From Thermodesulfovibrionales bacterium (GTDB lineage Bacteria; Nitrospirota; Thermodesulfovibrionia; Thermodesulfovibrionales; SM23-35): a stretch of DNA of 64,000 nt. The first letter of the stretch is position 1; each line of letters starts with the position of its first letter. The notes beneath the pieces were generated by a model. That model ran no database searches. It was not told where the DNA came from and saw only the letters and a list, made by a program, of their open reading frames with translations. Made by a program: the position numbers and the translations under genes. The DNA lies in NCBI GenBank assembly GCA_963715195.1, contig CAVQRT010000007.1:352001-416000 (forward strand), given 5' to 3'. This document shows, piece by piece, positions 21,276 through 26,774 of this stretch.

Positions 21276-22583
21276 ATGGCCTTTTCATCATTCAGAGGAG
21301 GAATACATCCTCCTGACAAAAAAGAACTTTCTTCGGAGAAACCGATCTCCGCGACAAAACCTCCGGCCCGGGTCATAATTCCACTCAGCCAGCATCTCGG
21401 GGCACCATGTAAACCAGTCGTCACGATGGACCAGAAAGTGAAAAAAGGAGAAATGATCGGTGAACCAGCTGGCTTTGTCTCGGCACCGGTCCATGCATCC
21501 GTATCAGGCGGGGTGATCGCGATCGGAGAATTCCTCAATGCAATGGGAAGGATGGTGCCTTCTGTTGTGATCGAAAATGATGGGAACGAGGAATGGTCAA
21601 TGCTGAAAGATCATCCTGATTATATGAACCTCTCACCTGATGAGATGAGAGAAAAGATCAGGAACGCCGGGATTGTCGGAATGGGAGGAGCTGCTTTCCC
21701 GACAGTCGTTAAGCTGTCTCCGCCTAAGGAAAAACCCATCGATACAGTTATTCTGAACGGTGCCGAATGCGAACCATATCTGACCGCAGATTACCGGCTG
21801 ATGCTCGAAAAACCATTCGAGGTTGTCGAAGGGCTTAAGGTGCTCATAAAGGTTTTGGGGGTTCAGAGGGGATTCATCGGTATTGAGAACAACAAGCCTG
21901 AAGCTGTAAAATCGCTTAAAAAAGCTGCCCAGGGAGAGAACTCTGTTGAGGTCTGCTCACTTCCTACGAAATATCCTCAGGGTGCTGAGAAGATGCTTAT
22001 TAAAACAATTACCGGCAGGGAAGTTCCCCCGAGGGCACTTCCGATGGATGTCAGGGTGGTTGTTCAGAATATCAGTACTGCAGTCGCTGTCTTTGAAGCG
22101 GTTCGATACGGGAAACCCCTCATAGAAAGGGTTGTAACCGTTACCGGAGAAGGCATTTACCAGCCAAAAAATCTTTTGACAAAAATCGGGACTCTGGTAT
22201 CACAGCTTATTGAGGATTGCGGAGGCATAAAAGGCGAAAATCTGAAGGTGATCTCCGGAGGACCGATGATGGGCTTTGCACTCTCTTCACTCGAAATTCC
22301 TGTTACGAAGGGGACATCGGGCATCGTCGTTCTGGCAGAGAGTGATATTGTGCATATGGAAAGTTTCGGGCCGTGCATCCGCTGCGGCAGGTGCATTGAT
22401 ATCTGCCCGATGGGTTTGATGCCCTCGATGCTCAGCATCTATGCAGAAAAAGGCTTCTATGAAGGAGCAAAAGAATACGGCCTGTTCGACTGTTTTGAGT
22501 GCGGTTCCTGTGCATTTGTCTGCCCGTCGAAAAGGCCGATAGTTCAGCTCATACGTCTCGCAAAATCACAGGTAAAACCATGA
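21276..22583 (+). CDS. rnfC: Rnf complex subunit C
   Basis: GIVGMGGAAFPT, NGAECEPY, YPQGAEK, two ferredoxin-type motifs. Confidence 0.97.
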   Translation: MAFSSFRGGIHPPDKKELSSEKPISATKPPARVIIPLSQHLGAPCKPVVTMDQKVKKGEMIGEPAGFVSAPVHASVSGGVIAIGEFLNAMGRMVPSVVIENDGNEEWSMLKDHPDYMNLSPDEMREKIRNAGIVGMGGAAFPTVVKLSPPKEKPIDTVILNGAECEPYLTADYRLMLEKPFEVVEGLKVLIKVLGVQRGFIGIENNKPEAVKSLKKAAQGENSVEVCSLPTKYPQGAEKMLIKTITGREVPPRALPMDVRVVVQNISTAVAVFEAVRYGKPLIERVVTVTGEGIYQPKNLLTKIGTLVSQLIEDCGGIKGENLKVISGGPMMGFALSSLEIPVTKGTSGIVVLAESDIVHMESFGPCIRCGRCIDICPMGLMPSMLSIYAEKGFYEGAKEYGLFDCFECGSCAFVCPSKRPIVQLIRLAKSQVKP

Positions 22584-22673
22584 TTAAATTCAAAACTGTT
22601 TTGTTCATTTGGAATTATGATTTGTTTAGCCGTTAGATATTTAAATTCAAGATTTAGACTCCTCATGTAATTT

Positions 22674-23669
22674 ATGGAAATTACCAAGAAACCATTTATT
22701 GTCTCGGTCAGTCCGCACATAAGAAGTGACGAGACAACGGCAAGGATCATGTGGAGCGTATCCGCTTGTCTGCTCCCAGCAGCAGTTATGGGAGCATACT
22801 TTTTCGGTCCCAGGGCAGTTTTGACTGTTTCGCTCTGCGTCATTGCATCAGTCCTCTCGGAACACCTGTATCAGAAGGCCCTGAAGAAACCGTCAACAGT
22901 CCGCGACGGCAGTGCCTTTCTTACCGGCCTTCTGCTCGGCCTTAATCTGCCACCTTCAGCGCCTTTTTACCTATCGCTGATCGGATCTTTTGTTGCAATC
23001 ATCATCACCAAACAGCTCTTCGGGGGACTCGGCTACAACATCTTCAACCCCGCCCTTATCGGAAGGGCATTCCTCGTAATCTCATTCCCAAAGCTAATGA
23101 CCGTGTGGAGCGAGCCGACTGCCGCATTCATTCTCCTTGACGCAAAGACCACGGCAACCCCGCTCGGAATTCTCAAAGAAGAGGGGCCTGCAAAGCTGAT
23201 ACAAGTCTTCGGAGATCAGCTAAACCTTTACGCCCAGCTTATTACCGGTCACAGAGCGGGTTCAATCGGAGAGACTTCGGCTGTTGCCCTTCTCATCGGT
23301 GCTGCATTCCTGCTTTATAAGAGATATATCACCTGGCATATACCTTTGTCCTTTCTCGGGACAGCTGCGGTGATCGCGTGGATAATCGGTGGAACGGATT
23401 CACTCTTTACCGGGGATCCCCTCCTGCACCTTTTCAGCGGCGGTATGATTCTTGGGGCTTTTTTTATGGCAACCGATTATGTCACGAGTCCTTCGATGAA
23501 AAGCGGCCAGATCGTTTTCGGAGCCGGATGCGGTTTTCTCACAATGCTCATCCGGCTCAAGGGCGGCTATCCCGAAGGGGTTATGTTCGCCATTCTGATC
23601 ATGAACGCTTTTGCGCCCCTCATCGACAGAGGATTTCAATCAAAATTCTTCGGGGCCGGAAAGAAATAA
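22674..23669 (+). CDS. rnfD: Rnf complex subunit D
   Basis: SPHI, FGGLGYNIFNPA, FMN site TTATPL, FMATDYVT. Confidence 0.97.
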   Translation: MEITKKPFIVSVSPHIRSDETTARIMWSVSACLLPAAVMGAYFFGPRAVLTVSLCVIASVLSEHLYQKALKKPSTVRDGSAFLTGLLLGLNLPPSAPFYLSLIGSFVAIIITKQLFGGLGYNIFNPALIGRAFLVISFPKLMTVWSEPTAAFILLDAKTTATPLGILKEEGPAKLIQVFGDQLNLYAQLITGHRAGSIGETSAVALLIGAAFLLYKRYITWHIPLSFLGTAAVIAWIIGGTDSLFTGDPLLHLFSGGMILGAFFMATDYVTSPSMKSGQIVFGAGCGFLTMLIRLKGGYPEGVMFAILIMNAFAPLIDRGFQSKFFGAGKK

Positions 23670-23684
23670 CCAGAGGGAGATACC

Positions 23685-24257
23685 TTGTCGGGAAAGGATA
23701 TACTGAAAATAACGTTTAACCTTGTTACAATCTATCTCGCTGGTGGATTAATCCTTGCACTCGTTTATGCAAAGACTTCACCGATCATGTACCGGAATGC
23801 TGTTCTGGAAAAGGAGAACGCCTTAAAAATGCTCATACCTGAAGCCGACAGCATTGACAAGCTGGGCGACTGGACGATTCATGACAAGCATGCAGAGTAT
23901 TTTGTCGCAAAAAAAGGAGATGCTGTCGCAGGGTACATTATCCAGTCATTCGGCAAAGGCTATTCAAGCTATATTAATACCCTCATTGCGGTCGATCCCG
24001 ATTTCAAAGTCCGGAAGATCAGTATCCTCGGTCATGCAGAGACACCGGGTCTCGGAGATGAGATTGAAGCAGAAAGCTTTCAGAACCAGTTCATTGGGAA
24101 AGGGCCGGACCATCTGACGGTATTGAAAACGGAGACGACAGACTACATTCAGGCAATTTCCGGAGCAACGATTTCAAGCAGGGCAGTTACCGAAGATGCG
24201 GTGAAAGCAGGACTCGATTTTCTCATAACCACCATGACAGATAAAAGCGAGGAATAA
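23685..24257 (+). CDS. rnfG: Rnf complex subunit G
   Basis: ETPGLG, FMN motif ISGATISS. Confidence 0.95.
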   Translation: MSGKDILKITFNLVTIYLAGGLILALVYAKTSPIMYRNAVLEKENALKMLIPEADSIDKLGDWTIHDKHAEYFVAKKGDAVAGYIIQSFGKGYSSYINTLIAVDPDFKVRKISILGHAETPGLGDEIEAESFQNQFIGKGPDHLTVLKTETTDYIQAISGATISSRAVTEDAVKAGLDFLITTMTDKSEE

Positions 24258-24874
24258 TGGTCCAGGGAGAAAAACCTGATTATATTGGGCTCATCAAAGA
24301 TGGCATTTTCAAGGAGAATACCATCTTCAAGCTTGCGCTGAGCCTGTGCCCTTCCATAGCGGTTACGAACAGTCTGCGGAATGGTGTTCTCATGGGAACC
24401 GCCGTCCTTTTTGTTCAGGTAATGGTCAACATTACCATTTCCATGATGAGAAATTTCATTCATCCGAGAATCCGTCTCCCTGTCTTCATGCTCGTCATTT
24501 CAGGGTGGGTCACGGTCACCGATCTGACCATGGCAGCCTTTGCCCAGGATGCATACAAGCAGATGGGTCTCTATATTCAGCTCATCGTTGCCTTTGCATC
24601 AATCCTTGCGCGCGCGGAAATGTTTGCGAGCAAGAACAAGATTGTTCCGTCCCTCTTTGACGGGATCGGGATGGGCCTCGGCTTTCTCTTTGCGCTCACT
24701 ATCATAAGTTTTTTCAGGGAGCTTCTCGGGAAAGGTTCACTGTGGGGTGTTCCGATTATCAACGCAAAGCCTCTCCTCATCATGATCCTCCCGGCAGGCG
24801 GCTTTTTTGCTGTCGGCATTTTGATGGGGTTTTTCAACTGGTTAGGTATGAGAAATGCTGGAAAAAGTCATTAA
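24257..24874 (+). CDS. rnfE: Rnf complex subunit E
   Basis: LSLCPSIAVT, IRLPVF, FFRELLG, ILPAGGF. Confidence 0.94.
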   Translation: MVQGEKPDYIGLIKDGIFKENTIFKLALSLCPSIAVTNSLRNGVLMGTAVLFVQVMVNITISMMRNFIHPRIRLPVFMLVISGWVTVTDLTMAAFAQDAYKQMGLYIQLIVAFASILARAEMFASKNKIVPSLFDGIGMGLGFLFALTIISFFRELLGKGSLWGVPIINAKPLLIMILPAGGFFAVGILMGFFNWLGMRNAGKSH

Positions 24875-25039
24875 TGCGATGCAGGGAATAGTGTTTGAGC
24901 GAATTTTCCTGCCGATAGTCAATTCATACTCAGCTCATAAAGATGCAAAAGCCTCGGAGTTTTCCGATCCCGAAATCATTCGGGACCGGGAAACGAGAAT
25001 GGGCAGCAATACGCTACCTTGCATTGAAGGAATGCGATA

Positions 25040-25627
25040 ATGGAATTTTGGAAACTTTTTGAATTGATTGTCTCAGCATCGCTGATTAATAACTTTGTGT
25101 TCACCCGTTTTCTAGGCCTCTGCATATTTTTTGGCGTCTCCCGGAGAATGGAAACAGCCATCGGCATGAGCATAACCTTCACGGTGGTGATGATGATCAG
25201 CGCAGGACTGAGCTGGCTCATTTTTCAGTACGTCATGATTCCCCTTGATATAACGTTTCTCAAGATTATCATCTTCATCGGTATTGTTGCCGGTTTTGTG
25301 CAGGCCTCAGACACCATCATGAGAAAAATCTCCCCGGGCCTTTATCACAAACTCGGCATATACCTTGCTCTGATATCTACAAATTGCATCATTCTTGCCG
25401 TTCCGCTGATTAACGCAGGGGAACAATACAGTTTTTTTGAAAGTCTTGCTTTTGCCCTCGGTTCAGGCCTCGGGTTTGCGCTTGCACTGATCATCATGGC
25501 AAGCATTCGCGAAAAGCTCGAACTCGCAGATGTTCCGGGTCCGTTCAGGGGAACACCGATCGCGTTTATCGTCACCGGCCTGATCGCCCTCGCATTTTCA
25601 GGCTTTGCAGGGCTTATAAAAATCTGA
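25040..25627 (+). CDS. rnfA: Rnf complex subunit A
   Basis: NNFVFTRFLGLC, LGIYLALISTNC, SIREKL. Confidence 0.96.
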   Translation: MEFWKLFELIVSASLINNFVFTRFLGLCIFFGVSRRMETAIGMSITFTVVMMISAGLSWLIFQYVMIPLDITFLKIIIFIGIVAGFVQASDTIMRKISPGLYHKLGIYLALISTNCIILAVPLINAGEQYSFFESLAFALGSGLGFALALIIMASIREKLELADVPGPFRGTPIAFIVTGLIALAFSGFAGLIKI

Positions 25628-25637
25628 TGGGGGGGAA

Positions 25638-26774
25638 ATGCTGACGGATATCCTTCAACTGTTGCACCTTCCCGATATCGTTCACTTTCTTGTTCCATAT
25701 GCCGGGGTCGGAGGCGGGGTTGAGGCAAAAGAACATGTGGCGTTAGCGCCGTTAATCAAATACACCCTCATCTTCCTCGCTGCTGTTGGAACCATATTCG
25801 GACTCGGGCTCGCGCTTGCCGCAAAAAAATTTTCTGTAAGGACTAATCCAAAGGTCGAGAAGGTCAAGGAAGTCCTTGCTCATGCTCACTGAGGGGCTTG
25901 CGGGTTCGCAGGGTGCGAACAATACGCGGAAGCAGTTGTCAAAAACCCTGAGGTCCCCCCGAATCTCTGTGTGCCTGCGGGAGCAAGAGGAGCGGAGACA
26001 ATTTCCCGTATCACGGGCAAGAAACCCGTGGCACGGGAGCCAATTTTTGCGCGGGTCATGTGTCAGGGCGGTTGGAGCAGATCTGCAAAAAAATTTGTTT
26101 ATGAGGGAGTTCAGGATTGCAGGGCGGTCATGCTCACCGGCGGTGATAAGGCGTGCAGATATGGATGTCTTGGTTACGGGACATGCGAGCGAGTCTGTCC
26201 GTTCGGTGCAATTACCATGACAGGCGATCATCTCCCCTTCGTCGATATTCAGAAGTGCACCGGGTGCAGAAAATGTGAAGCGGCCTGTCCGACACAAATA
26301 ATCGAAGTTCTTCCGGAATCGAAACAGGTTCTCATTGCATGTCATTCAAAAGACAAAGGTGCCGACACGAAAAGAAGCTGCGAGGTCGGATGTATCGCGT
26401 GCGGGATCTGTGCAAAAATTTGTCCGTTTGATGCACCTTCCATCAAGCATAATCTGTCCGGAATCGATCTGAATAAGTGCACCGTTTGTGGTCTCTGCGT
26501 TCCGAGATGCCCGACAGGAGCAATAACAGAATTTATTCCGCAGCGGCCGAAAGCATTCATTCTCAGTCATTGCACAGGCTGCCGGATATGCGCCGAAGTG
26601 TGTCCCGTGGATGCGCCTTCTGGTCAAGTGCACAAGCTGCACGTCATCGATACGACGAGATGCACCGGTTGCGGTATCTGTACTGTACATTGCCCGGTCC
26701 AGGCTATTGACGGAACATTCAATGTTACCGCGGTCTTTGCCGCTGCGGCACAAAGGAAGCAAGAAGCCGCATAA
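25638..26774 (+). CDS. rnfB: Rnf complex subunit B, 378 aa if in-frame TGA 25890-25892 is read through (probable selenocysteine)
   Basis: ORFs 25638-25892 and 25971-26774 share a frame; read-through gives AHAH-U-GACGFAGCEQYAEAV...NLCVP, then six ferredoxin-type motifs; last gene of rnfCDGEAB. Confidence 0.9.
25904..25920 (+). promoter_or_regulatory. Putative bacterial SECIS hairpin
   Basis: GTTCGCA-GGG-TGCGAAC perfect 7-bp stem; 18 nt separate the TGA from the G loop. Confidence 0.65.

Follow-up and report, generated by a model that had tools for sequence, protein, structure and literature searches.

Rnf is a central energy-conserving pump of anaerobes. The RnfB subunits of the solved complexes (A. 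woodii 9eri_B, C. tetanomorphum 7zc6_B, A. vinelandii 8ahx_B) have a membrane anchor, an FdI motif and a polyferredoxin part, their genes belong to an rnfCDGEAB operon, and the first ligand of their FdI cluster is a cysteine. In the accessible text of Vitt et al. 2022 (PMC9588780), FdI is described as very mobile and as placed between the membrane helix on one side and the fixed FdII+III part on the other, and it is proposed to shuttle electrons from cluster RnfB-2 to the metal centre of RnfA/E. The same shuttle role is given in the Rnf review PMC12174285, which holds no word beginning with "selen", and selenium is also unmentioned in the accessible parts of the Rnf structural literature that we searched.

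A selenoprotein type of the kind described here has catalogue entries in the accessible parts of Zhang et al. 2022 (PMC9312934) and of a 2026 AEM review (PMC13188914), under a generic name and with one example accession only; like the rnfB of this report, it was predicted there by Cys/Sec pairing plus a bSECIS. The catalogued family has the same model as our protein, NF005503, which is now named RnfB, and the same UxxC motif (U-G-A-C here), and the Sec column of the catalogue examples is likely the same as that of U85 in our protein. The accessible main text of Zhang & Gladyshev 2008 (the GOS paper), which both reviews cite for the family, does not mention it. Table S3 of Peng et al. 2016, as far as it is accessible, lists "RnfC" as a selenoprotein and does not contain RnfB; according to the accessible text of Fonknechten et al. 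2010 (PMC3091704), this "RnfC" is PrdC of the proline reductase operon and not a subunit of the Rnf pump, so that it is a Sec-bearing Rnf subunit in name only. The rnfC of the present genome has no in-frame stop. Literature searches on RnfB with selenocysteine or selenoprotein, on Thermodesulfovibrio Rnf, and on the Rnf complex with selenium returned no paper whose accessible text names RnfB a selenoprotein. Here, we report an rnfB from Thermodesulfovibrionales (Nitrospirota) with a predicted selenocysteine at the first FdI ligand. The lineage member is new, and its kind is already catalogued, uncharacterised and routinely mis-annotated; what we add is a comparison of synonymous sites in Sec and in Cys forms, a stem pair that covaries from one phylum to the other, and evidence for more than one origin.

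The rnf operon and the reading frame of rnfB

The window is a 64-kb stretch (C7:352001-416000) of a host genome of 2.81 Mb in 36 contigs, and all positions are those of the window unless a contig is given. The features discussed are as follows.

21276..25627, + strand: rnfC, rnfD, rnfG, rnfE and rnfA, upstream in the same operon, all intact (Pfam)
25638..26774, + strand: rnfB, full-length predicted selenoprotein gene, 378 aa with U85 (one frame under TGA=U)
25881..25976, + strand: coding region of the FdI-type Fe-S domain, residues 82-113 (Pfam PF04060)
25890..25892, + strand: predicted Sec-UGA codon U85, at the first ligand position of the CxxCxxxxC...C motif (column comparison, contigs)
25896..25933, + strand: possible extended lower SECIS stem around the hairpin, tentative (48-nt MFE fold)
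25904..25920, + strand: bSECIS upper stem-loop GUUCGCA / GGG / UGCGAAC (sequence, folding, Sec/Cys comparison)

The operon order is rnfC (21276-22583), rnfD, rnfG, rnfE, rnfA (25040-25627) and rnfB, with hemE and hemH before it and a GAF histidine kinase after it. An earlier sequence-only reading of this DNA had taken the rest of the operon to be intact, and Pfam bears this out with Complex1_51K and RnfC_N in rnfC, NQR2_RnfD_RnfE in rnfD, FMN_bind in rnfG, and Rnf-Nqr twice, in rnfE and rnfA. Gene calling with table 11 cuts rnfB at the TGA and yields one ORF at 25638-25892 and another at 25971-26774. In a standard annotation rnfB would thus look truncated or broken, and metabolic reconstructions of Thermodesulfovibrionales from sediments could mistake a working Rnf for a defective one. 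The same reading had joined the two fragments through a single TGA, and translation with TGA=U indeed gives one frame of 378 residues with its sole TGA at 25890-25892 (...AHAH-U-GACGFAGC-x17-C...). It had also denied that UGA is globally reassigned, correctly so, since three of the nine neighbouring genes (hemE, rnfC, and rnfA) terminate with TGA.

The read-through protein is RnfB by several measures. It scores 274.1 bits with the NCBIfam profile NF005503 ("RnfABCDGE type electron transport complex subunit B", cut-off 252) and 138.5 bits with TIGR01944 (cut-off 68.7), and PF04060 ("Putative Fe-S cluster") matches residues 82-113 with 33.3 bits against a cut-off of 23. Among solved RnfB chains it matches 9eri_B of A. 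woodii (1.1e-72) and 7zc6_B of C. tetanomorphum (3e-61), and its residues 42-113 align with the N-terminal anchor and the FdI motif of both. In this alignment U85 is opposite the first Cys of CGGCG..GC in the two chains, which places the predicted Sec at the first cluster ligand, the position that the sequence-only reading had assigned to it.

The spacer between rnfE and rnfA is unusually long (165 nt, 24875-25039). A 61-aa ORF at 24855-25040 is probably non-coding, i.e., spacer, because tblastn found no match to it among 49 related loci.

TGA and cysteine codons alternate at one column

In a first survey of 61 relatives, full-length orthologues were found in most, and nine genomes (this one counted) had one TGA, always at the same codon. 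A family search over 57 Thermodesulfovibrionales genomes, with a match defined as E<=1e-60, gave RnfB in 35, and 13 of these 35 (this genome included) have one TGA. In 13/13 TGA forms the TGA coincides with the motif's first Cys codon, where the rest of the 35 have TGC or TGT; this is the alternation among orthologues that had been named beforehand as a check. The TGA forms span at least nine genera of the family. Within one genus TGA is present in 4/6 genomes, indicating that the predicted Sec/Cys state switches between close relatives. In a phylum sample of 401 genomes, 201 of them with a match, TGA occurs solely in this family among the 150 matches listed.

A Desulfobacterota sample of 401 genomes contained 153 with an RnfB match, and from it we compared 12 matches flagged as having one TGA together with four Cys forms. 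Half of the 12 (L108, L111-L114, and L117) have their TGA at the U85 column. The other six (L106, L107, L109, L110, L115, and L116; one is also flagged for one TAA) have Cys at the first ligand and TGA elsewhere, which could be either the normal end of the gene, translated past in the search, or another Sec site. Over the whole comparison set the column holds TGA in 19 sequences and TGC or TGT in 44; please note that the genomes compared are kin, and these counts overstate the number of independent observations.

A SECIS-like hairpin conserved together with TGA

The hairpin downstream of the UGA is exactly as it had been described from the sequence, i.e., a perfect 7-bp stem with arms GTTCGCA (25904-25910) and TGCGAAC (25914-25920) closing a GGG loop (25911-25913), with 18 nt between UGA and loop. 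The published bSECIS model, given in the Fig. 2 legend of PMC13188914 (the review being accessible in part), sets a loop of 3-9 nt, an upper stem of 4-16 bp, G in the first two loop positions, a spacing of 16-37 nt and MFE <= -7.5. The rnfB hairpin fits every one of these limits with its 3-nt GGG loop, 7 bp, 18-nt spacing, and MFE of -7.5 kcal/mol for the 17-nt hairpin alone or -15.4 kcal/mol for the 48-nt fold from the UGA (z = -2.28; 4/200 shuffles fold as well). The 48-nt MFE fold also contains the imperfect lower stem to which the hairpin had been said to extend, with about 25896-25902 paired with 25927-25933, and we keep this extension as tentative; over nine Sec forms the lower helix forms in 81.9% of cells, with no convincing covariation. 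Folding 76 nt around the site gave no advantage over shuffled sequences (z = -0.45), and an Rfam scan of 25800-26050 at E<=10 gave no SECIS family and only a chance lncRNA match. On the nine Sec forms RNAalifold prefers another helix, which overlaps the hairpin, begins directly behind the UGA, and has a GGUU loop and no compensatory pairs; the exact SECIS fold given here is thus tentative.

The comparison of Sec and Cys forms is more informative. The six core stem pairs are formed in 19/19 Sec forms, 18 of them with Watson-Crick pairs throughout, vs 2/44 Cys forms, none of which is Watson-Crick throughout, and the median hairpin energy is -7.5 kcal/mol in Sec forms vs -0.8 in Cys forms. The synonymous sites of codons +3 (UGC), +4 (GGG), +5 (UUC), +8 (UGC), and +9 (GAA) are invariant in the 13 Nitrospirota Sec forms and all variable in 35 Cys forms, and all remaining degenerate codons between -3 and +16 do vary among the same 13 Sec forms. 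All 19 Sec forms have Phe (UUC) as residue +5, and 26/35 Nitrospirota Cys forms have Tyr; since an A in the middle of codon +5, as in Tyr, would break the stem, Phe at this residue is a choice of amino acid by which the stem is kept.

Covariation of the hairpin, another check proposed in advance, was found in one pair. The outermost pair is G-C in the 13 Nitrospirota Sec forms and C-G (five) or A-U (one) in the Desulfobacterota Sec forms, a compensatory change between the two phyla that comes from only six Desulfobacterota sequences, which were chosen for carrying TGA and, as kin, are not independent. Inside the Nitrospirota Sec forms neither RNAalifold nor pair counting against shuffles (nine Sec forms) found covariation, because the stem arms never vary within the 9 or the 13 forms. 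Two Cys forms, L025 (genome G016) and L044 (genome G002, of the same genus as the present genome), keep a pairable stem with G-U pairs. Both adjoin Sec forms in the tree or in taxonomy, and from this placement they look like recent Sec-to-Cys reversions; their stems mean that the hairpin by itself does not imply Sec at this site.

Sec machinery and the decoding of UGA85

The Sec genes that the sequence-only reading had listed for searching are all present in the genome: selA (531 bits), selB (355.6 bits vs a cut-off of 242), selD (369 bits, with one in-frame TGA), and tRNA-Sec (selC; 73.4 bits vs a gathering score of 47, anticodon TCA by ARAGORN). All 13 TGA-rnfB genomes of the family have selA. 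Three sampled relatives had no selA match; one of them has a Cys-RnfB, and the other two are without an RnfB match.

The codon, its frame, the hairpin with its lineage-specific conservation, the Sec machinery, and the Cys/Sec alternation are all directly observed. On these grounds we put a probability of about 0.9 on the reading that rnfB is an intact selenoprotein gene whose UGA85 encodes selenocysteine at the first Cys ligand of the FdI cluster. In the mechanism that we propose, SelB with Sec-tRNA(Sec) would bind the hairpin at 25904-25920, itself part of the coding sequence and with 18 nt between its loop and the UGA, selenocysteine would be put in at codon 85, and the ribosome would read on through the remaining 293 codons. 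Sec85 would then replace the first of the four Cys ligands (U-x2-C-x4-C-x17-C) of the [4Fe-4S] cluster of FdI, a small ferredoxin-like domain at the N-terminus of RnfB, and the shuttle cluster would be Se-ligated in an ion pump that is in other respects an ordinary ferredoxin:NAD+ oxidoreductase. Sec85 is the first FdI ligand by alignment and FdI is assigned the shuttle role; the prediction is thus an Rnf pump with one Se ligand on its shuttle cluster. We infer in this sense that selenocysteine is actually inserted and that selenium ligates the cluster, possibly with some shift in redox potential or robustness, and the "selenium-dependent Rnf complex" of the sequence-only reading is to be understood in the same way. 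If so, the mobile shuttle [4Fe-4S] cluster would be a natural experiment, with Se for S at one ligand of a low-potential relay.

UGA85 may alternatively be read through, wholly or partly, by something other than Sec, i.e., by Cys inserted via the Sec pathway when selenium is scarce or by near-cognate Trp/Cys suppression, and the mature RnfB would then often be ordinary and Cys-ligated. Cys does suit the site, as the 44 sampled homologues with Cys attest, and Cys insertion at Sec codons is known in other systems. However, the SelB-type hairpin is kept by selection specifically with TGA, the TGA genomes have Sec machinery (the full set in this genome and selA in all 13), and a plain TGC would do if Cys were intended, a switch that relatives do make. 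We regard this alternative as improbable.

Still less probable, in our judgement, is that the TGA is a true stop, with rnfB either a pseudogene or split into an 84-residue membrane anchor and a C-terminal protein of 267 aa that starts at GTG 25971. Table 11 yields exactly these two ORFs, and neighbouring genes do terminate at UGA; the remaining rnf genes, however, are intact, and TGA recurs at one column over at least nine genera with the frame beyond it intact in 12/13 forms (the match in G020 has one TAA). The next possible start, GTG 25971, falls after the fourth ligand, so a protein started there would have neither the membrane anchor nor any of the FdI cluster site. The other three cluster ligands are encoded in the 26 codons that separate the TGA from this GTG, and the residues after the TGA, GACGFAGCEQYAEAVV, are invariant in 13/13 TGA forms save one E/D change, with synonymous sites varying; such conservation as protein with synonymous drift indicates that the stretch from the TGA to GTG 25971 is translated.

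A sequencing or assembly error for TGC or TGT, conceivable in a metagenome-assembled genome with an estimated contamination of 6.57%, is the least credible explanation of all, given that 12 other family assemblies have TGA at this column and that the codon at 25890-25892 is unchanged in Logan contigs from three runs of three studies (one run may be the source sample of the MAG itself). The sole variant nearby is 25913 G>A in one of the three runs (X2), at the third loop base, where GGG becomes GGA, a synonymous Gly codon; the stem and the UGA are unchanged.

Probably more than one origin of the Sec state

We masked the motif in 63 RnfB proteins and inferred a quick tree with IQ-TREE, on which at least five Sec/Cys changes are needed. 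A single clade of all 19 Sec forms is rejected (p-AU 7.6e-39), which argues that the predicted Sec state arose, or was lost, more than once. For the 13 Nitrospirota Sec forms taken alone, the test does not reject a single clade (p = 0.115). From the tree, Sec probably arose separately in Thermodesulfovibrionales and Desulfobacterota. The Sec forms of the two phyla share the TGA column and a core stem UUCGC/GCGAA with an NGGNU loop, coded by F-A-G-C-E; the Desulfobacterota forms differ from ours in the outer pair (C-G or A-U vs G-C), in length (287-309 aa vs 378), and in forming a distinct clade.

Because the codons of the conserved peptide F-A-G-C-E themselves spell out the stem, repeated recoding would be plausible. 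A broader proposal, which we put forward tentatively and would sooner bet against than for, is that the coding sequence of G-F-A-G-C-E is a latent SECIS, in which UUC, UGC, and GAA pair as UUCGC/GCGAA around a GG loop that is suitably spaced from the first ligand codon. This may have let Cys-to-Sec recoding arise independently in Thermodesulfovibrionales and in Desulfobacterota and revert easily, and the Se ligand would tune a mobile shuttle cluster that feeds a membrane Fe-S centre, itself without one of its four canonical Cys ligands in the whole order (RnfE AFAS, described below).

Observations on other subunits and genes

RnfE of this genome has IVAFASILARAE at residues 112-115 (24590-24601), compared with IV(V/T)NC(I/A)ILxRAE in the solved RnfE/NqrD chains 9eri_E, 7zc6_E, and 8ahx_E, and AFAS stands in place of (V/T)NC(I/A) of these homologues. 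The second conserved RnfE Cys, which is one of the four ligands of the membrane [2Fe-2S] cluster (PMC12174285), is Ala here in the alignment. The AFAS string occurs in 39/48 Nitrospirota loci, alike in those with Sec- and Cys-RnfB; the other nine are without a match to the pattern.

An entry in Table 2 of PMC2398784, a source accessible in part, concerns PF02508, the Rnf-Nqr membrane subunit family of RnfA/RnfE, and another Rnf/Nqr subunit may thus also occur as a selenoprotein. The selD gene of this genome lies outside the window, at C7:136569-137492 on the minus strand, and it is probably a selenoprotein gene too, given its one in-frame TGA.
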